Under the pieces are notes generated by a model. It worked only from the letters and a program-made list of their open reading frames with translations, did no database searches and was not told where the DNA came from. Below, in pieces: positions 23,698 to 54,506 of a stretch of 64,000 nucleotides of DNA (its first letter is position 1; each line of letters starts with the position of its first letter). Made by a program: the position numbers and the translations under genes. The DNA is from Planctomycetota bacterium (GTDB lineage: Bacteria > Planctomycetota > UBA8742 > UBA2392): the NCBI GenBank assembly GCA_019186845.1, contig JABARW010000063.1, positions 26,337 through 90,336 on the forward strand, read 5' to 3'.

Positions 23698-25074
23698 GTG
23701 GCCATCACTGACTTTCTGGTGTTCAGTTGCATCCTCACGCTGAACGCGTTTTTCTGCGCTTCCGAGACCGCCCTGACGGGCGCCTCGGAGGCCGCCGCGC
23801 GCTCCAGGGCTGACTCCGGCTCGCGCCGCGGCAAGCTGCTGCTCAAGCTGCTGGCCGACCGGCCCCGCGTGGTGACAGCGCTGCTGATCGGCCAGAACAT
23901 TGCCGGGGCAGTCCTGGCCGTTTACTCCTCCCGCGTCATCGATGACACCTTGGGGGCGCAGCTCTCTCCCGTCTTGTCGGCGTTGCTGGCGGTGGCCGTT
24001 TCGATCCTTCTGCTGCTGGTCTTTGGCGAGGTCATCCCCAAGACCCTGGCCGTGCGCTTTGCGACACCCTGGGCCCTGTTTTTCTCCGGGCCTGTGTTCC
24101 TCACGACGCTCGTTTTCTGGCCCGTGACTGCCGTGCTGGCCGTGGCCAGCACCGGGATCCTGCGCCTGGTGGGCAAGCATGAAGAAGGCGCCACGGTCAG
24201 CGTGGATGAAATCCAGACCATCGCCAAGATGGGTCAGGAAATGGGCGTGATTGACTCCATGGAAATGGAGATCGTGCAGAAAGCCAGCGTGCTCAACGAA
24301 ACCAAGGTGCGCGACATCATGGTGCCGCGCACCGACATCCATGCCATCCCCGCGAGACTGAACCTGGCCGAGCTGCGCCAGGCCTTCAAACGCGACCTGT
24401 TCTCGCGCACCCCCGTCTACCTGGGGGACCTCGACGACATCATCGGCGTGCTCAACTTCAAGGAACTCCTGCGCCTGACCCCGCAGGATGAGGCCCGCTT
24501 CAAGCTGCAGGACTATCTGCACCCCGCCCTCTTCGTTCCCGAAGCCATGAGCGTGGGCGTGCTCCTGACCAAAATGCGCGAGCGCCGCACGCACATGGCC
24601 ATCGTCATTGATGAATACGGCGGCACTTCAGGCCTGGTCACGTTTGAAGACATCGTCGAGGTGCTGGTGGGCCGTGTGGAGGACGAATACGACGTCACGG
24701 CCAAGCTGATTGAACGACGCGAAAACGGCCTGTGGGAGGTGGACGGCCGCCTGACCCTCGAGGAGCTGGAGGAGACCCTCGGGGTGAGCCTGGGCGAATC
24801 CGAGAAGGAAGGGGTCACCACGGCTGCGGGCCTGGCCCTGAAGGCCTTCGGAAAAATACCGGCGGAAGGCGACGCCACGACGTTCAATAAGCTCAGCCTC
24901 AAGGTGACGCGCATGCGCGACCAGCGGGTGCGTCGCCTCGAGCTGCGCTGCATCGAGGAATGTCCGGCGGAGACGGAGGGCCGCATCGAGGTCAGCGACC
25001 ACCCCCTTTCCGACGAATCAGCTATCATGCCACTGCCGCGGCCCCAGCCGCCTACGTCAGGAAGTCAGCCATGA
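23698..25074 (+). CDS. CNNM/DUF21-CBS-CorC family membrane protein (hemolysin/TlyC-type annotation)
   Basis: GTG start. N-terminal DUF21 TM domain (FFCASETALT..LLIGQN). CBS pair (VRDIMVPRTDI.., RTHMAIVIDEYGGTSGLVTFEDIVE). CorC_HlyC C-terminus. Confidence 0.85.
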   Translation: MAITDFLVFSCILTLNAFFCASETALTGASEAAARSRADSGSRRGKLLLKLLADRPRVVTALLIGQNIAGAVLAVYSSRVIDDTLGAQLSPVLSALLAVAVSILLLLVFGEVIPKTLAVRFATPWALFFSGPVFLTTLVFWPVTAVLAVASTGILRLVGKHEEGATVSVDEIQTIAKMGQEMGVIDSMEMEIVQKASVLNETKVRDIMVPRTDIHAIPARLNLAELRQAFKRDLFSRTPVYLGDLDDIIGVLNFKELLRLTPQDEARFKLQDYLHPALFVPEAMSVGVLLTKMRERRTHMAIVIDEYGGTSGLVTFEDIVEVLVGRVEDEYDVTAKLIERRENGLWEVDGRLTLEELEETLGVSLGESEKEGVTTAAGLALKAFGKIPAEGDATTFNKLSLKVTRMRDQRVRRLELRCIEECPAETEGRIEVSDHPLSDESAIMPLPRPQPPTSGSQP

Positions 25075-26675
25075 AGTTCACCGCACTCGCCCTGCTGCTG
25101 GTCACCGGTTTGGCCGCCCAGCTCCAGGCCCAGGGTGGGCCGCAACTGCCCGCCAACTCCAACCAGGCCTCGCCCTCCAAGGAAAGCTTCCTGCTCGAGC
25201 CCCCGGGGCTGGCCACGGGCGCCAAAGATGCCTACTTGCGCCTGGTGTCCAATTCTCCCGCCGGTTTTGCCAGCAGCAGTTCCAAACAGCCTGAAATCCG
25301 CCTGGGGGAAGGTGTCAAGCTGGTCACGGGGAGCTTCCGACTGCTCAGTCCCAATGAGGCGGAATGCCGCGTCGATGTGGACGCTGACGCCATGGGCACG
25401 GTCGAAGTCAGCCTGGTTTTCTATTCCGTCAACGGCACTTCCGTGCTGAGCACGCAGCGCGCCACCCTGGGCCTGCTGGGTCCCACAAAGATTTCCGGCA
25501 TTGACATCTCCGTGGAAAGTGTGGCCCTGGTGCGCGTCAACGTGAGCGAGGCACAGGCCGCGGGCGTCGTCGTACTCAGCGGGCCAGTCAATGGCGCGCT
25601 CACGCTGGTGGCCCCCACCGGCTGCCGCTTTTCGCGCGCCCCGCTGGCCACCACGACCAAGGGCACCATCAACACGCCCGGCCTGGCCGAGGGCAACACA
25701 CAGTTCACATTTGGCGTCGGCAACGCCGCCGGAGAGGCGGCCGTCGTTCGCATCACCGAAATCCTCTACGACACCTCGACCTTCACGCTCACAGGCGGCG
25801 CCTTGGGCGCGCTCAACTGCGAACTGCGCGGCGGCGCCCTTTCCGGCCAGAGCACCCTGGTGGCCAACGCCTACACCGCGCTGATCACCATCGCCGGAAC
25901 CAATGACAACACGGACACCCAGCCCGCGCCAGGCGGCCAGAACAGCAACTCCACCAGCACGCCCGAGGGCGCGCCCGTGACCACCACCGTACCCGGCGAC
26001 AGCACTTCCGGCGGCACGGGCCGCTCACGTGATTCCGAGCGCGCCCCGCGCCAGGGCAACCAGCGCGACACCTCGTCGCCCGCCCGCAGCTCCCCTCCCA
26101 CCTCCGGTCCCACCCCCCAGGGTGGCGGCTCAAGCACCCCTCCCCCCCGGGCGCCCGAAGTGCGCAGCGATGTGCCTCCGCCGCCCCCGCGCAGCGAGGC
26201 GCCGGCGCCGCCGCGCGCCGTGCCTGCGGGCTCGGGCGCTTCGAGCGCAGGCGGTGACGGCGGGGCACGCTGGGTCAATGACCCCAAGCCTGCCGCGCCA
26301 GCGGAAGCCCCGGATGCCGCGCCCAAGATGGTTCTGATCACCACGCCGGGTCTTTACTTCTGCGACAAGGACTTTGGGCCCGTGGACATGGTGGTGCTGA
26401 ATTCGCTGGTCTCAGACCGCGCTGCGGCACGCGTCTGGATCGTGGTCAAGCTCGAGAAGGACAAGAACCCCGACGCCATCGAGACCATCGACGTCACCCT
26501 GCGCGTCAGCGGGACCGTGCGCCAGCTCAAGCTGACCGAGACGGGCAAGAACACGGGCGAGTTCCGCTGCGACAAGGCCGGGGTGCTGCTGGTCAGCGAC
26601 GAAAACCCGGAAAGCAATCCCGCCGAGAAGCCGGTCAGTGAACCCAAGGCGCGTCCCAGCGGTCTGGCCCGCTGA
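25071..26675 (+). CDS. Hypothetical secreted protein with Pro/Ser-rich linker
   Basis: ATG 25071 overlaps the CNNM stop (ATGA). Signal peptide MKFTALALLLVTGLAAQLQAQG. Central low-complexity P/S/G-rich stretch. No recognised domain. Confidence 0.5.
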   Translation: MKFTALALLLVTGLAAQLQAQGGPQLPANSNQASPSKESFLLEPPGLATGAKDAYLRLVSNSPAGFASSSSKQPEIRLGEGVKLVTGSFRLLSPNEAECRVDVDADAMGTVEVSLVFYSVNGTSVLSTQRATLGLLGPTKISGIDISVESVALVRVNVSEAQAAGVVVLSGPVNGALTLVAPTGCRFSRAPLATTTKGTINTPGLAEGNTQFTFGVGNAAGEAAVVRITEILYDTSTFTLTGGALGALNCELRGGALSGQSTLVANAYTALITIAGTNDNTDTQPAPGGQNSNSTSTPEGAPVTTTVPGDSTSGGTGRSRDSERAPRQGNQRDTSSPARSSPPTSGPTPQGGGSSTPPPRAPEVRSDVPPPPPRSEAPAPPRAVPAGSGASSAGGDGGARWVNDPKPAAPAEAPDAAPKMVLITTPGLYFCDKDFGPVDMVVLNSLVSDRAAARVWIVVKLEKDKNPDAIETIDVTLRVSGTVRQLKLTETGKNTGEFRCDKAGVLLVSDENPESNPAEKPVSEPKARPSGLAR

Positions 26676-26690
26676 TACCCGTCAGCAATG

Positions 26691-26718
26691 CAAAGGGCGC
26701 CCCGAGGGGCGCCCTTTG
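26691..26718. terminator. Hairpin between convergent genes (bidirectional terminator candidate)
   Basis: CAAAGGGCGCCC-CGAG-GGGCGCCCTTTG, a 12-bp perfect stem. Confidence 0.5.
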
Positions 26719-26735: not shown

Positions 26736-29700
26736 TCAGGCGCAGAGCCTGCGGCGCATTGCAACGGCCAGCGCGCAGACCAGGCCTGCCAGAACCAGCC
26801 AGGAGCTGCCCTGGCCGGTGGTGCAGCCGGCTTCTTCCTCTTCCTCTTCCAGCACGGTGATAGCCAGGGTGTGAGGCACAGAGCAATCCTGGCCGCCGTT
26901 GGCAACGCCGCCATCGTCCATCAGCACCAGGCTGATCTGGGCGCTGCCTTTGGCCCCGCGCCGCACGGTGAAGCTCAGGGTACCGTCCTGGGCCACCGCG
27001 GGCTGAACGTCAAAGAGGCCGGGGTTATCGTTGGCGAGCACGGCAAAGCCCAGCACCTGGGAGGCTTCGTTGGCGGCCCCGCTGTGCATGCCCTGGGCCC
27101 ATCCGCTGAGGCTGATTGCGCCGGCGTTGTTCTTCACCTGCACGTTGGCGCCGGGCGTGAAGACCGGGGCATCGTTGACCTCCAGCACGGCGATCTTGAA
27201 GTGCTGGGTGGGCGAGGCCAGGCTGGCTGGATTGACACCGTAGGTGACTTCTTCGAGCACCACCTCGAAGTACGCCACGCCATGAGCATCGGGCAGCAGG
27301 GTGAAGGTGAGATCGCCGGTGAAGACATCGATGGAGGGCGCCACGGCGAAGAGCTGCACGTTGTTGAGCTGTGAGACCACGAACTGGATGTTCTGAACTC
27401 CGTTGCCCGGGCCGCTGGAGATGCTGGTGGCCCAGCCGCTGAGGGTCACCGCCAAGCTGTCCTCCAGGACAGTTACGTCGGCGCCCTTGACGAAGCTTGG
27501 CGCATCATTGACGGGATTGATGACGATTTCGAACTGCTGGCCCGCGGACGTGTCCTGGCCGCCGTTGGCCGTACCGCCGTCATCGTAAAGCTCCACACTA
27601 AGCTTGGCGCTGCCCCAGGCGTTGGCCGCGGGCTCGAACTCCAGCGTGCCGTTGGCAAGGATCTGGATGTAGGCAAACAGCGAGGGATTGTTGGAGGAAA
27701 TCTTGAAGCCCACGGTTTGGCCGGACTCGTTGGCCGGACCGGCGCTGATGTTCGTGGCCCAGCCGGAGAATGACTGGGGACCGCAGTCCTCCTGCAGAAT
27801 GATGTCTGCACCCTTGCTGAAAGACGGCGCGTCGTTGATCTCGCTGATCCGGATGCGCAGCGTATACGCGGCCGAGGTGTCGGCCCCGCCGTTGGCGGTG
27901 CCGCCGTCGTCCTGAAGCTGGACCGTCACGTCGCACGCCCCATAAGCGTTTGGCGCGGCCTGGAAGGTCAGATCTCCCTGGGCATTGATGATCACGCCAC
28001 CTGTGAACAGCGAGGGATCCGACATGGAAACCACCACAAACGTGAGCATCTGGCCCGACTCGCCTGCACCCGCATCGATGCCCTGAGCCCAGCCCGTAAC
28101 CGTGACCACGCCCGCGTCCTCATTCACACTCACGTCCTGGCCCGGGGTGAAATAGGGCGCATCATTCACAGGCTGAATCACGATCGACACCGTCGCGGCC
28201 GAGGTGTTCCCCGACGGGTCCTGCACTTCATAGTCAAAGCTGTCGGTGCCGAAGAAGTCCGCGTCGGGCATGTAGTCAAAGCTGCCGTCGGCCTTGAGGA
28301 CCAGCGTGCCGTGCGAGGGGGCCGTCTTCATGGTGATTGCAAGGCTGTCGCCGTCGGCGTCATAGTCATTGGCCAGCACACCCTGCACGCCTGAACTCAA
28401 GGGCTGGTCTTCGTTGCTGGTGTAGTGATCAGCCACGGCCACCGGGGCATCGTTGACGTTGAGAATGTCCAGGATGACCGCCACGACTGCGCTGTCGGCG
28501 CTGCCGTCATTCAGCTTGTAGCTGAAGCTGTCAGTGCCAAAGAAGTCAGCGTCGGGCATGTAGTCGAAGCTGCCGTTGGGCTGAAGCGTCAGAGTGCCGT
28601 GACTGGGACCGCTGACCAGGACCACCGTGAAAGGGTCGCCATCAACGTCGTAGTCGTTGACAGTCACTCCGCCGCCGTTGATGTGCAACAGAGTGTCTTC
28701 CGTACCCTGATGCATGTCTGACACGGCCACGGGGGCGTCATTGACCGGATTCACCGTCAGGCTGACCATGACGACGTTGCCGTAGACCGTGCCGTCATAG
28801 GCGCGATAGCTGAAGGCGTCGGCGCCGTGATAGTCCGGGTCAGGCGTGTAGCTGAAGCTGCCGTCGGCGTTGAGCGTCAGCGAGCCTTGGGCCGGGCCGC
28901 TGACGAGCTGCACCGTCAGGGTGTCGCCGTCAACGTCAGAGTCGTTGGCCAGAAGGCCGGGCGCCGCGACGTTCAGAGGGGTGTCTTCGTTTGTCACGTG
29001 GACGTCCGCCACCGAGATCGGGGCATCATTGGCCGCCGTCACGGTGAGCGTGACGTTCACAGTGTTGCCCGCCTGGTAGCTATCATGGGCGCGATAGCTG
29101 AAAGAGTCGGCGCCGCTGTAGTCCGGGTCAGGAATGTAGCTGAAGCTGCCGTCGGCGTTGAGCGTCAGCGAACCGTGGGCCGGACCGCTGACAAGCTGCG
29201 CCGTCAGGGGGTCGCTGTCGCCGTCGCTGTCGTTGGACAACACGCCGGGCGCGGCAACGGAAAGCGTGCCGTCCTCGCTGACGCTGTGGCTGTCGGCCAC
29301 GGTCACAGGCGCGGAGTTGGGCGTGCCCTCGATGGAGAAGAGCCAGGTGTAGCCGCCCATGATGGACCAGGAGGCGCCGCCATCGGTGGAGAACGCCCAC
29401 AGTGCCGTGCCGATATTGGAGTGGTGGTTGCCGATGCTGCTGCCCGCCGCAGCCGACATCACGTACCAGTATTGCGTGGAGCTGCTGAGGTAGGCGGGCG
29501 ACATGGCGACGTTGACATAGCCGCTGCCCGAGACCGTCGCACTGCCGGAGGAAATCAGCGCACCGGGCTGGCCGCCGTTATTGGCGCGGATGGCCAGGTT
29601 GATGGTGCCGCTGCCACTGAGACTGGCAGAAATCTGCGTGATGATACCGCTTTGCGTGGGCGTGATGCGCTCAGCGTAGTGCCAGGTGTCAGAGGGTCCG

Positions 29701-29867
29701 CCGGTGCCGTAGTGCGTGCCGGCCGTGCTGTCATAGAGCGTCGCGGCACAGAGCGCGGGCGAGAGCGCCATCAGGGCCGCCAGGCAAAGCAGGCGCGGGG
29801 CCCAGCCTGCGGGCGGCCGCGCCGGGGCGCGACGGTAGCAGCACGAAACATCGGGATGAGAAGACAT
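26736..29867 (-). CDS. Large repeat-containing surface adhesin (cadherin-like / tandem ~95-aa Ig-like repeats) with Cys-containing C-terminal sorting-type tail
   Basis: ATG 29867 is preceded by GGAGGA. Signal peptide (APRLLCLAALMALSPALCAA). Eight NDAP-delimited repeats. Tail EEEEEEAGCTTGQGSSWLVLAGLVCALAVAMRRRLCA. Confidence 0.8.
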   Translation of the reverse strand: MSSHPDVSCCYRRAPARPPAGWAPRLLCLAALMALSPALCAATLYDSTAGTHYGTGGPSDTWHYAERITPTQSGIITQISASLSGSGTINLAIRANNGGQPGALISSGSATVSGSGYVNVAMSPAYLSSSTQYWYVMSAAAGSSIGNHHSNIGTALWAFSTDGGASWSIMGGYTWLFSIEGTPNSAPVTVADSHSVSEDGTLSVAAPGVLSNDSDGDSDPLTAQLVSGPAHGSLTLNADGSFSYIPDPDYSGADSFSYRAHDSYQAGNTVNVTLTVTAANDAPISVADVHVTNEDTPLNVAAPGLLANDSDVDGDTLTVQLVSGPAQGSLTLNADGSFSYTPDPDYHGADAFSYRAYDGTVYGNVVMVSLTVNPVNDAPVAVSDMHQGTEDTLLHINGGGVTVNDYDVDGDPFTVVLVSGPSHGTLTLQPNGSFDYMPDADFFGTDSFSYKLNDGSADSAVVAVILDILNVNDAPVAVADHYTSNEDQPLSSGVQGVLANDYDADGDSLAITMKTAPSHGTLVLKADGSFDYMPDADFFGTDSFDYEVQDPSGNTSAATVSIVIQPVNDAPYFTPGQDVSVNEDAGVVTVTGWAQGIDAGAGESGQMLTFVVVSMSDPSLFTGGVIINAQGDLTFQAAPNAYGACDVTVQLQDDGGTANGGADTSAAYTLRIRISEINDAPSFSKGADIILQEDCGPQSFSGWATNISAGPANESGQTVGFKISSNNPSLFAYIQILANGTLEFEPAANAWGSAKLSVELYDDGGTANGGQDTSAGQQFEIVINPVNDAPSFVKGADVTVLEDSLAVTLSGWATSISSGPGNGVQNIQFVVSQLNNVQLFAVAPSIDVFTGDLTFTLLPDAHGVAYFEVVLEEVTYGVNPASLASPTQHFKIAVLEVNDAPVFTPGANVQVKNNAGAISLSGWAQGMHSGAANEASQVLGFAVLANDNPGLFDVQPAVAQDGTLSFTVRRGAKGSAQISLVLMDDGGVANGGQDCSVPHTLAITVLEEEEEEAGCTTGQGSSWLVLAGLVCALAVAMRRRLCA
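26850..29318 (-). repeat. Intragenic tandem domain repeats of the adhesin (4 x ~95 aa type A, then 4 x ~110 aa type B)
   Basis: Type A: N[SD]AP..VAD..EDT.L.V..PG.LANDSD.DGD.LT..LVSGP..G.LTLNADGSF.Y.PD.D..G.D.F.Y. Type B: NDAP.F..G..V.V.ED......SGWA..I..G..NE..Q...F.V..N....F......I...G.L.F......G.A...V.L.DDGG.ANGG.D.S. Confidence 0.8.
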
Positions 29868-30094
29868 GGTTCCTCCATTCAGCAGTAAGGCCGCCCGCAG
29901 TCCGGTGGCGCCGCAAGGCGCGCGTGATCTCGAAGGCACGCGCGGCGGGAAGCGCGCGTGTCGGAGAGCAACGTACACCGAACATCAAAAACCGAAAAAC
30001 CAGAGAGTTTGAACAAGCGCAAGGTTTGCGTTTTTTCAGCGTGCCGGGACGTCGAGAATTTGCTTTGCTAATAAGACTGCGTCTCATTCTCATT

Positions 30095-31446: not shown

Positions 31447-31914
31447 CTACAGGAAAAGGCCCGCCAGCGTCGAGGGCACGTTGGCGACAAAGGCCACCGC
31501 AAAGCCATAGAAGAGGGCGGGGGCGGGCGCGCGGCAGCCCTCTTTGCCCCAGCGCATGATGGCCAGGGCCACGAGCAATCCCTCGATCGCGACCACGCAG
31601 GACTCGGCAATCACCAGCCATGTGATGTAGACGGGGTCCATTCCTGCGGGCACCAGCGGCGCCAGATAACTCGGGTCAGGCTCGAACCAGGGGAAGTAGT
31701 ACCAGAGCAGAGGGTGCGTCACCAGATTGACGAAGAGCGCGAGCGGAAGGGGAATCCACCAGCGCCGGCAGACCCAGCAGAGCAACAGAAAGTAAATCGG
31801 CCCCTCGATGCTCTGGGTGTGCCAGTGGGCGCGCCACCACAGATCCAGGGGGTTGTAGTCGTTGAGCACCCAAGGAGCGAGCCACTCGGGCACCATGACG
31901 GGGTACTCGCTCAT
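31447..31914 (-). CDS. Hypothetical polytopic membrane protein (155 aa, Trp/Pro-rich)
   Basis: ATG 31914 overlaps the stop of the upstream gene (ATGA at 31911-31914). About 4 hydrophobic helices. No recognised family. Confidence 0.5.
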   Translation of the reverse strand: MSEYPVMVPEWLAPWVLNDYNPLDLWWRAHWHTQSIEGPIYFLLLCWVCRRWWIPLPLALFVNLVTHPLLWYYFPWFEPDPSYLAPLVPAGMDPVYITWLVIAESCVVAIEGLLVALAIMRWGKEGCRAPAPALFYGFAVAFVANVPSTLAGLFL

Positions 31915-32885
31915 GGCGCGGGCCTCGCGCCACTGACAGCGAAGTAGGAAAGAAACGCCAGCTCCAGCCAGCCGTGAAACAGCACGATGGTGAGATAACC
32001 CCAGTTGGCCATGGAGGCGTTCTCAAGTGAAAGGGCAGGCCAGGCCCCGCTGAAGTCCACAAAGGCATAGGCGGGAACGGCCAGCACGCCCACCACAATC
32101 AGCAGCAGACCGGTCACTCCAAAGTCAGAGCGGAGCGATTTCAGGTCCTGGACGAAGGTCGTGGGCGGAGCCGTTTCATGCAGTTCCTGCGGCATGAGGC
32201 GCAACCAAACGGTGTAGTGCATGGCTTGGGCGAAGATGTATGTCTGCACCACGCGAAGCGCCATGGCATCCGGCAGGCCGGGCGCCAGCGCCATGGCCCA
32301 ACCCTCGGCCTCAAACCCCCACACAGGGGCAGCCCAACCCGCGAAGCTCGCCGTGATGCCATCCAGAACGCCGGCCATGATGGCCAAGCAGCAGGCAAGG
32401 AAAAACAGACTGGCCAAGGCTGCCTTGAACCCACCCCCTGCCCGCACTGCAAACAGAAGCCAGATGCCTACTGCTATAAAATTGTGCAGGTGCGCCAGGG
32501 CCAGGCCCGACTCCCTTGGCCAGTACAGGGCCGCGCTGCCAATGGCCGCCACCGCCGCGCCCGTCACCAGGCGCCGCCAGAGTCTTCCCGGCGCGGCAAC
32601 CACCCCGAGCATCACAGCCGCAACGCCAAAGGACACCTCGGCCAAGGCATGGCGCGGCATGTCAAACATCACGGAAACTCTCAGGGCAGTCTGGGCCAGC
32701 AGAGGAATCAGCAGCAAGGCCACAAACCAGCGACGCAGGGCAATGGGCGGCCGCACCAACAGATAGCGAATGTCTCCTACTATATGAGGGGCGCCCAGAA
32801 GGATGGGAGCGAGCAATAGCATCCAGAGGGGAGCCACAGCCGTAATAGCCAAAGCCACGGACATTGAGGCAATAGCCAGGATCAT
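31911..32885 (-). CDS. Hypothetical polytopic membrane protein with four His-containing TM motifs
   Basis: Track ORF opens on TTG at 33002; first ATG is at 32885 (MILAIASMSVALAI..). About 8 helices. Motifs LGAPHIVGD, LAHLHNF, QAMHYTVW, VLFHGWLE. Start uncertain (32885-33002). Confidence 0.5.
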   Translation of the reverse strand: MILAIASMSVALAITAVAPLWMLLLAPILLGAPHIVGDIRYLLVRPPIALRRWFVALLLIPLLAQTALRVSVMFDMPRHALAEVSFGVAAVMLGVVAAPGRLWRRLVTGAAVAAIGSAALYWPRESGLALAHLHNFIAVGIWLLFAVRAGGGFKAALASLFFLACCLAIMAGVLDGITASFAGWAAPVWGFEAEGWAMALAPGLPDAMALRVVQTYIFAQAMHYTVWLRLMPQELHETAPPTTFVQDLKSLRSDFGVTGLLLIVVGVLAVPAYAFVDFSGAWPALSLENASMANWGYLTIVLFHGWLELAFLSYFAVSGARPAP

Positions 32886-32988
32886 CAGCCGCGTGTGGCG
32901 GTCGTGAATGCAGTGGCGCCCCAAGGAGGTCTTGGCGGATATGCGCCAGAACTCCCGCCGAACGGAGTCAGCGAGGTTGACAGGTAGG

Positions 32989-33183
32989 CTAAGCCCGGCC
33001 AAGGCGCCACCTCCAGAAGATGCGCAGCCCCAGCAATGCTGCTGTAACTAGAGCCACGGCGGCCAGCGTGAAATTACTTTCGTCACCAGTTGTGCAATTG
33101 CCCTTGCGCGGAGGCACATCGGCAAGGGCTACCGTGCATTGCACGGCCAGCATCATCATTGCCAGCAAGAGTCGAAAGATCAT
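32989..33183 (-). CDS. 64-aa mini-protein: signal peptide directly followed by CTTG-TM-Arg C-terminal tail
   Basis: ATG 33183 (track ORF opens on TTG 33204). MIFRLLLAMMMLAVQCTVALA|DVPPRKGNCTTGDESNFTLAAVALVTAALLGLRIFWRWRLGRA. The tail is colinear with the adhesin tail at 26739-26831. Confidence 0.5.
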   Translation of the reverse strand: MIFRLLLAMMMLAVQCTVALADVPPRKGNCTTGDESNFTLAAVALVTAALLGLRIFWRWRLGRA

Positions 33184-33542
33184 CCGCAAGTTCCTCGCAG
33201 GCAAGTGGACGAAAAAGAAGATGGAGCGGTTCCGGCTGACCTGGGTGGGTTTAGATGTCGGGAAGTCAGGCGTTTGGGAACCAAAGGGTGCCGCTGGTAT
33301 GAAGCATTGTGTTTCGTTTTGGTTCCAAAACCAGCATTACCGGGTCATGGTTTTGTGTTACGGCCCGGTGGCGACGGAAATAAAACTGCGTGGTTCGAAT
33401 CTGTAAGTATCTATTTTATAATGTTTTGCGACGACACACTGGGGCGGTAACCGGCGCGGGCATCAAGAAATTTCAGTTTGGCACGGACAACGCTTATGCT
33501 TCGGCGCACTGTAAACAAGTCCACCAACTTCGGGAGATAGAG

Positions 33543-53822: not shown

Positions 53823-53825
53823 GCC

Positions 53826-54506
53826 ATGGTCGCCAGGCGCGGCTTCACCCTGATTGAACTCATGATCGTGATCGCGATTATCGTCGTGATTGCGGGCGTG
53901 CTCGTGGCCAGCTTCGGCGGCGTATTCAGCAAGCGTGATGACGCCGTGGCCAAGACCACGATCGAGACTCTGAGCTCCAACATCCAGAGCTTCCAGGGTC
54001 GCTGGCACAGCTACCCGCCGGGCAGCGTGGAGGCGCTTTCGGTCATGGCGCGCTCGGCCATTCCGGTGGCCGATCCCAATGAAGTCAACTGCGGCATCGA
54101 GGCGCTGGTGCTGGCCTTGCGGTCAAGGAAGAACGGCGGGGCCTACCTCTCCGCCGATCTTTTCGCCAACGACGAATACCGCAAGAATACCGATGCCGAC
54201 ACGCTCATGGACGACCCCTTCGACATCGACGGTTCACGGGACCTGTTCGAGATCGTCGATCCCTGGGGCACGCCCTATGTCTATGTGAACATGAACGAGC
54301 TGCGCAACGGCAAGGTCAAGCAGAGCATTCAGCTTGAGGACGGCACGGTGGTTGAACTCAACCTCACCGAGATGCAGGAGAAGCTCAAGCACCCCACCAC
54401 CGGCCAGTACCCGACAGGCTACGCCATCTGGAGCTTCGGCGCGGACAAGAAGAACGATTACGGACGCGGTGACGACGTCACCAGCTGGCCCAAGTACAGC
54501 GACTAG
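53826..54506 (+). CDS. Type II secretion / type IV filament major pseudopilin (GspG-like)
   Basis: Prepilin cleavage/methylation motif RRG|FTLIELMIVIAIIVVIAGVL (Glu at +5). C-terminal SFGADKKNDYGRGDDVTSW resembles the GspG signature. Confidence 0.75.
   Translation: MVARRGFTLIELMIVIAIIVVIAGVLVASFGGVFSKRDDAVAKTTIETLSSNIQSFQGRWHSYPPGSVEALSVMARSAIPVADPNEVNCGIEALVLALRSRKNGGAYLSADLFANDEYRKNTDADTLMDDPFDIDGSRDLFEIVDPWGTPYVYVNMNELRNGKVKQSIQLEDGTVVELNLTEMQEKLKHPTTGQYPTGYAIWSFGADKKNDYGRGDDVTSWPKYSD

Follow-up and report, generated by a model that had tools for sequence, protein, structure and literature searches.

A cysteine-containing, MYXO-CTERM-like C-terminal tail on predicted secreted proteins of a planctomycete family

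The metagenome-assembled genome (MAG) of a member of the Planctomycetota (GCA_019186845.1) encodes 38-40 proteins that end in a tripartite tail, in which an invariant cysteine preceded by a spacer is followed by a hydrophobic transmembrane (TM) helix and a terminal cluster of basic residues. The tail was encountered at the end of an adhesin-like secreted protein of 1043 amino acids (aa) encoded in a 64,000-nucleotide stretch of this genome (contig JABARW010000063.1, positions 26,337 to 90,336; hereinafter, the window). Comparison with named signals supports the interpretation of the tail as a planctomycete family-specific variant of the known cysteine-containing (Cys-type) tripartite sorting signals, with MYXO-CTERM as the closest named relative; two features of MYXO-CTERM, a cognate myxosortase and the described taxonomic range, are not shared by the new family. 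Cys-type C-terminal sorting, that is, the combination of MYXO-CTERM and a myxosortase, was demonstrated experimentally only in 2025 (PMC11980579). The tag was previously not known in this planctomycete family, and here it is found in about 40 copies in a genome in which the usual processing enzyme is not recognizable. If the interpretation is correct, the known range of Cys-type surface anchoring broadens to a family of uncultured Planctomycetota, providing a handle on surface display in planctomycetes, a group in which little is known of envelope biogenesis; some 40 "hypothetical proteins" per genome would become annotatable as surface-anchored, and a small set of candidate proteases is indicated. 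The finding overturns no concept.

The adhesin-like protein and its tail

The adhesin open reading frame (ORF) occupies positions 26736..29978 on the minus strand of the window; its product has 1080 aa if translation starts at the first GTG, or 1043 aa if it starts at the ATG at 29867, which precedes a typical N-terminal signal peptide (…RLLCLAALMALSPALCA). The 1043-aa product (26736..29867) thus consists of a signal peptide, a repeat region and the tail. Because the body is built of cadherin-like, Big_9 and tandem-95 repeats (316 bits over six stretches for the tandem-95 model NF012211, and six stretches each for Big_9, Cadherin_4 and Cadherin_5), the label "adhesin" appears fair.

The original prediction that the adhesin ends in a tripartite, sorting-type tail at 26736-26849 (minus strand) was borne out both in sequence and in coordinates: this interval comprises exactly the stop codon and the final 37 codons of the gene. 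As verified in the DNA, the C-terminus reads ...TVLEEEEEEAGCTTGQGSSWLVLAGLVCALAVAMRRRLCA followed by the stop, and the order of the elements is TVLEEEEEE-AGCTTGQGSS-WLVLAGLVCALAVAM-RRRLCA-stop, that is, a spacer of six glutamates (26832-26849), the signature AGCTTGQGSS (26802-26831, with the codon of the invariant Cys at 26823-26825), the hydrophobic helix (26757-26801) and the Arg cluster RRRLCA (26739-26756), all on the minus strand. The closest public record, a Planctomycetota MAG (isolate PLA1) with approximately 90% DNA identity across 8.5 kb, contains an adhesin ortholog in which the tail is retained with two substitutions.

A family of tails within the genome

The genome is a 3.74-Mb assembly of 89 contigs, with 63.8% GC and 88% completeness. 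When the C-termini of its six-frame ORFs were scanned for C[ST]TG taken literally, eight convincing tails emerged, and a looser tripartite pattern revealed many more, spelled CSTA, CTAG, CSAG, CTSG and so on. A hidden Markov model (HMM) seeded on the pattern matches and iterated to convergence on the same C-termini matched 38 proteins, and two more were recognized by eye, so that the proteome scan suggested along with the original prediction produced 38-40 members rather than just two. The same model produced 0 matches on reversed and 0 on shuffled C-termini, and in a search of whole ORFs, the end of the match was no more than 11 residues away from the stop in 36 of the 38 cases; the recurrence of the tail in this genome is far beyond chance. 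The adhesin tail itself scores 37.9 bits against this model (E value 3.3e-9), and 38.6 bits when the six-frame genome was searched.

The Cys is the sole invariant column of the family. It is embedded in a consensus that starts with a Gly/Asp-rich spacer and continues as G(-2) G(-1) C(0) [S/T](+1) [T/A](+2) [G/S/A](+3) [E/D](+4), followed by about four further polar residues, a helix rich in Leu/Ala, and 2-5 Arg/Lys residues. Two elements originally considered to be part of the signal do not generalize: CTTG is one spelling of a more degenerate core, G-G-C-[ST]-[TA]-[GS]-[ED], and the run of six glutamates is peculiar to the adhesin, most of the other tails having the Gly/Asp-rich spacer in its place.

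The proteins that carry the tail are mostly 400-3200 aa long, and most contain an N-terminal segment resembling a signal peptide, as judged by a crude regular expression; among them are adhesin-like proteins with cadherin-like and beta-helix repeats. Five of the predicted gene products are letter-for-letter identical to entries in a public protein collection, and close public relatives of the tail proteins are named "hypothetical protein" or after a generic repeat. The window contains a second tail-bearing gene, located at 32989..33183 on the minus strand and encoding a mini-protein of 64 aa from the ATG, in which the original prediction had noticed the same motif. The tail is indeed present (E value 2.6e-5 against the tail HMM; 43.9 bits in the six-frame search). 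The mini-protein consists of a signal peptide, the stretch ADVPPRKGN-C-TTGDE, a TM helix and RWRLGRA; its C-terminus has the form GN-CTTGDES-NFTLAAVALVTAALLGLRIF-WRWRLGRA, the ORF ending in ...GNCTTGDESNFTLAAVALVTAALLGLRIFWRWRLGRA and the stop.

Two further arrangements of tail genes were observed on other contigs (coordinates with a C prefix are those of genome contigs). The 1936-aa stop-to-stop ORF at C39:419-6229, outside the window, contains a complete internal tail (…DDDEGCTTGEGVSFAWLLVSILALLAVQRCRKLRD, C39:3554-3655) 859 aa before the ORF end, after which the frame continues without a stop into an apparent signal peptide (…KKHRSQLVRFGALVLVLGLPAASLDAQ); this is either a fusion of two tandem tail genes through a lost stop codon or an assembly error, or a case of read-through. 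The following two genes on this contig also encode tails. At C59:3903-4328 and C59:5689-6033, two small ORFs located 1.4 kb apart share identical final 50 residues including the tail (…YGDDDSCRTSGQSGVALWLALALAVSGLALRRLRRV), suggestive of a small tail gene that was duplicated in tandem not long ago.

Distribution of the tail across Planctomycetota

The phyletic sample included 201 Planctomycetota genomes, eight from the same GTDB family, one from the same order and 192 others. With the genome-derived tail model, tails were detected in all eight genomes of the family, from 21 to at least 37 in each, compared to none in the single genome of the same order and only three single marginal matches in the 192 other Planctomycetota. 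A further related MAG, SJ383, contains 41 tails. In a sample of 20 tails from eight related genomes, the Cys is retained in all 20, as are the TM helix, the Arg cluster and the stop, and C-S-T-G is the commonest spelling. Judging by their names, related MAGs may come from bioreactor communities.

This distribution lies outside the range reported for MYXO-CTERM, which is described as a myxobacteria-specific tag (PMC11980579; 10.1101/2023.06.07.544157) that is limited to Myxococcota and Bradymonadales, with singleton false positives elsewhere (10.1101/2023.06.07.544157). Our literature search found no paper that ties a Cys-type sorting signal to planctomycetes.

Relationship to named sorting signals

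Among the 38 tails scanned singly, the most frequent match was to the MYXO-CTERM model TIGR03901.2 (MYXO-CTERM is represented in NCBIfam by TIGR03901.2 and TIGR03382; the cognate myxosortases belong to the CPBP family, with the core model NF040914). Matches at E<=1 were obtained for 27 of the 38 tails, with the best E value of 9.4e-7, and nine reached E<=6e-4, which is roughly equal to the 20-bit cut-off. Among 10 tails that were scored individually, three exceeded this cut-off, at 29.1, 23.8 and 23.0 bits, and in these the match spans profile positions 2-33 of 34, including the Cys. The next-ranked matches were to the C-termini of several MYXO-CTERM-anchored protein families and to the older GC_trans_RRR model. 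The Cys-containing MYXO-CTERM, named in the original prediction among comparable signals, is hence the closest named relative, and the accompanying proposal that the signature belongs to no named class has to be divided: it holds for the adhesin tail, for which TIGR03901.2 gives no match at E<=1, and fails for the family, in which a named sorting HMM, the kind of match that was to count against novelty, detects the majority of the members at E<=1 and about nine of 38 at the cut-off. Judging from these scores, the tail family appears to be MYXO-CTERM-like and to lie at the edge of the reach of the curated model, with the adhesin tail beyond that edge; the author of the MYXO-CTERM model has pointed out that lineage-specific forms need lineage-specific models (10.1101/2023.06.07.544157).

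The resemblance to MYXO-CTERM extends to the tripartite end, in which a Gly-rich stretch precedes an invariant Cys, the TM helix and the Arg cluster, to the dozens of large secreted or adhesin-like carriers per genome, and to the presence in the same genome of CPBP paralogs and genes resembling those of a type II secretion system (T2SS). The differences are that a single Cys is followed here by [ST]-[TA]-G-[ED], whereas MYXO-CTERM often contains GCGC; that the host is a Planctomycetota family rather than a member of Myxococcota or Bradymonadales; that the adhesin's own tail falls below detection by the model; and that, unlike the systems served by MrtX, MrtC, MrtP and MrtZ, this genome has no CPBP reaching the cut-off of the myxosortase core model.

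Other single-Cys signals are more distant. The JDVT-CTERM HMM matched eight of the 38 tails at E<=1 (best score 18.1 bits, cut-off 27), and the Synerg-CTERM and CGP-CTERM HMMs matched two each. These are lineage-specific single-Cys signals, each with its own CPBP subfamily, a pattern that is apparently followed here. The tails described here differ from JDVT-CTERM in that they lack the DP motif and in their number, approximately 40 targets in one genome, as opposed to one-target cassettes. The GlyGly-CTERM model TIGR03501 matched one of the 38 tails (E value 0.05); the likeness consists in the G-G ahead of a TM helix and basic tail, in the rhomboid-family genes of the genome and in the T2SS dependence that the cargo would have, whereas the invariant Cys and the polar spacer of 8-10 residues between GG and the helix set the tails apart. 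The PEP-CTERM model PF07589 reached 12.1 bits, under the cut-off of 20.7.

For the adhesin tail alone, the only model to reach a sorting-domain cut-off was LPXTG_anchor (TIGR01167), and then as a borderline match (16.5-16.9 bits, cut-off 15.9) over profile positions 5-24, that is, the helix; isolated tails scored 16.5-18.5 bits. Such borderline matches arise because C-S-T-G-[DE] with a helix and a basic tail resembles the LPXTG layout of T-G, acidic or small residues, hydrophobic helix and basic end. The tails differ from LPXTG signals in the lack of L-P, the invariant Cys in its place, the lack of a sortase gene in the genome and the diderm host.

Search for the processing enzyme

No sortase domain (PF04203) was detected in this 88%-complete genome by a search in which positive controls were found and which was not extended to the other seven family genomes; exosortases/archaeosortases (PF09721) were likewise not found in the genome. 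Five genes encode CPBP proteins, none of which attains any Mrt cut-off (75 bits for MrtJ, 130 for MrtS, 200 for MrtA), the best MrtJ score being 38.3 bits; the best score against the myxosortase core NF040914 is 28.9 bits, with a cut-off of 100.

The five CPBP genes were ranked by phyletic profile over the 201 genomes. The 294-aa protein encoded at C13:51383-52264 is present at full length in 8/8 family genomes, with 33-39% identity, and elsewhere gives only two weak partial matches; the 207-aa protein encoded at C18:22633-23253 is also present in 8/8 (27-32% identity), with one weak full-length match elsewhere. These two clade-restricted CPBPs appear to be the best candidates for the tail enzyme. 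The MrtA-like CPBP at C7:95966-96853, which is the best conserved of the five (7/8 family genomes, 51-57% identity; best NCBIfam match archaeal MrtA, 58.6 bits with a cut-off of 200), seems a weaker candidate; core homologs with 39-52% identity occur in about 16 tail-free genomes, and no Cys-tail gene is found nearby in 14 loci of its homologs. The remaining two were rejected: the CPBP at C22 is found in 7/8 family genomes but also has a full-length ortholog in the tail-free genome of the same order and many weaker homologs elsewhere, and the one at C7:92989-93987, with a MORN-like N-terminus, has orthologs in only 3/8 family genomes and a few weak or partial homologs elsewhere.

The protein encoded at C7:95966-96853 is unusual in its CPBP motif 1, Q-F-F-A-V-E-F-F-F-R-G, with a single Glu compared to the usual E-E-x-x-x-R. 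Across its homologs (loci L026-L039), the single-Glu form was seen in each of four family orthologs that were examined and in 2 of 10 more distant homologs; a crude regular expression did not detect motif 1 in the other eight. A standard HxxxN motif was not found in this subfamily with a simple pattern.

Proposed pathway

We consider it fairly probable that the approximately 39 tail proteins are exported, lipidated, cleaved by a CPBP/Rce1-family protease of a non-canonical kind and brought to the surface through a T2SS-like machine. The N-terminal signal peptide would direct Sec export of the adhesin and some 38 other large secreted proteins, after which the C-terminal helix would retain each protein in the cytoplasmic membrane with the Arg cluster on the cytoplasmic side. 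The invariant Cys, which follows a flexible spacer of Gly/Asp (Glu in the adhesin) and would lie immediately outside the membrane, would be lipidated by a separate enzyme; the helix would be cut off distal to the Cys by an intramembrane protease of glutamic type, a member of the CPBP/Rce1 family. The lipid-anchored protein would then be transferred to the cell surface, probably via the T2SS-like machine. The model follows what is known of the myxobacterial system, in which MrtX cleaves MYXO-CTERM in a Cys-dependent manner and export in the Myxococcus xanthus model proceeds through the T2SS (PMC11980579), and draws also on the myxosortase/MYXO-CTERM mechanism discussed in the preprint by Haft (10.1101/2023.06.07.544157). 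The protease would differ from canonical myxosortases, with the products of C13:51383-52264 and C18:22633-23253 as the best candidates. Potential components of the export machine include at least two genes for secretin homologs, three GspE-like and three GspF-like genes on other contigs, and in the window a GspG-like pseudopilin ORF at 53823-54506 on the plus strand (C11:80159-80842; 36 bits against E. coli GspG).

Several observations weigh against this model. The adhesin tail does not match TIGR03901.2 even at E<=1. Scores against NF040914 go no higher than 34.4 bits, with a cut-off of 100, across 10 genomes (the eight of the family, SJ383 and the same-order genome), and control genomes free of the system reach the same level as the tail genomes; with the myxosortase core below the cut-off in all 10, the absence is not a gap of one MAG. 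None of the tail genes has a CPBP gene beside it, and their contexts are housekeeping (succinate dehydrogenase cytochrome b, DinB, MarR, S41 peptidase and an FAD-dependent protein). Of the CPBPs and rhomboids of the genome, the phyletic profiles covered the five CPBPs; they rank the enzyme candidates without identifying the enzyme, and the match of C13 and C18 is weak evidence because all tail-positive genomes belong to one clade, so that it counts as one event in evolution, which every gene specific to the clade would share. Whether these tails make up a fifth, Planctomycetota-specific Cys-type system ("GC[ST]TG-CTERM"), with some 20-40 surface proteins per genome and its own sorting protease (a CPBP of the C13/C18 type or another class), that arose or diverged independently of the myxosortases, appears to us an evenly balanced question.

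The tail could be a sorting signal of this kind that is processed by an enzyme other than a CPBP, either one of the two rhomboids (C17:15619-16701 and C2:75198-75920) or an undescribed membrane enzyme, a possibility that we consider unlikely. The failure of all CPBPs to attain any Mrt cut-off is compatible with it and, with respect to the rhomboids, so is the G-G immediately ahead of the tail Cys, which recalls the rhombosortase/GlyGly-CTERM pair. The two rhomboids, however, score only 48.1 and 44.6 bits against the rhombosortase model TIGR03902, with a cut-off of 84, and the GlyGly-CTERM HMM matches but one tail. Furthermore, every described Cys-type signal has a CPBP assigned to it (PMC11980579; 10.1101/2023.06.07.544157), and the nearby membrane protein pair that might be suspected to include such an undescribed enzyme fails the phyletic test described below.

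It is quite unlikely that the tail is a permanent, uncleaved anchor that keeps the proteins in the cytoplasmic membrane, facing the periplasm, with the Cys serving for a disulfide bond or for lipidation without proteolysis. The layout of a TM helix and Arg residues is sufficient by itself for a stop-transfer anchor, the processing enzyme is known here only as candidates, and part of the uncleaved M. xanthus proteins are still located at the surface (PMC11980579). Nevertheless, such an anchor does not call for a Cys that is invariant and keeps a constant distance from the helix that follows it, as is seen in about 40 unrelated proteins and in nine genomes; the tails are related at the HMM level to a signal with demonstrated cleavage; and cargo of the adhesin type, with its cadherin-like and beta-helix repeats, would be expected on the surface of the cell. 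Finally, an LPXTG-like signal, with C-[ST]-T-G replacing LPXTG and a sortase cutting between T and G, is suggested by the TIGR01167 scores and by the succession of T-G-[DE], TM helix and Arg, but is very improbable given that these matches begin only at profile position 4-5 (T-G, helix, basic tail) without Leu-Pro, that sortase signals do not feature an invariant Cys and that the sortase domain search, confined to this genome among those of the family, was negative.

Genes adjacent to the tail genes in the window

A gene for a polytopic membrane protein of 363 aa (31911..33002, minus strand) begins within the last codons of the mini-protein gene; it is followed by a gene for a 155-aa membrane protein (31447..31914, minus strand) with an ATGA overlap indicative of translational coupling. 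Neither protein matched any Pfam or NCBIfam family. The pairing, with the 155-aa partner downstream, is conserved across three phyla, namely Planctomycetota, Verrucomicrobiota (including Akkermansia MAGs) and Myxococcota. A further idea, that these neighbouring membrane proteins form the general machinery for processing the tails, did not survive the phyletic test: among the eight tail-bearing family genomes, the pair is present in this genome only, and it is also found in 2 tail-free Planctomycetota and in 9 tail-free Verrucomicrobiota genomes, Akkermansia included.

Among the loci with the pair, the mini-protein gene is located in front of the 363-aa gene only in two related Planctomycetota loci (L006 and L007). 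Directly upstream of the pair in one locus from Polyangiaceae (L020, 5189-5896) is a gene for a protein of MYXO-CTERM type. Despite the regional DNA identity of approximately 90%, the mini-protein (32989-33204 compared to L006 5667-6014) is far more diverged than its neighbours: in L006, the signal peptide and the helix are changed and CTTG is replaced by CTAG, with the ADVPPRKG-x-C stretch and the tripartite layout retained.

On the other side of the adhesin, an inverted repeat that is perfect over 13 bp and has two nucleotides at its centre (CAAAGGGCGCCCC-GA-GGGGCGCCCTTTG, 26691..26718), read directly from the sequence, separates the adhesin gene from the convergent gene for a 571-aa Pro/Ser-rich secreted protein (24960-26675). 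The hairpin is likely to be a bidirectional terminator, which would place the adhesin gene at the end of its transcription unit.

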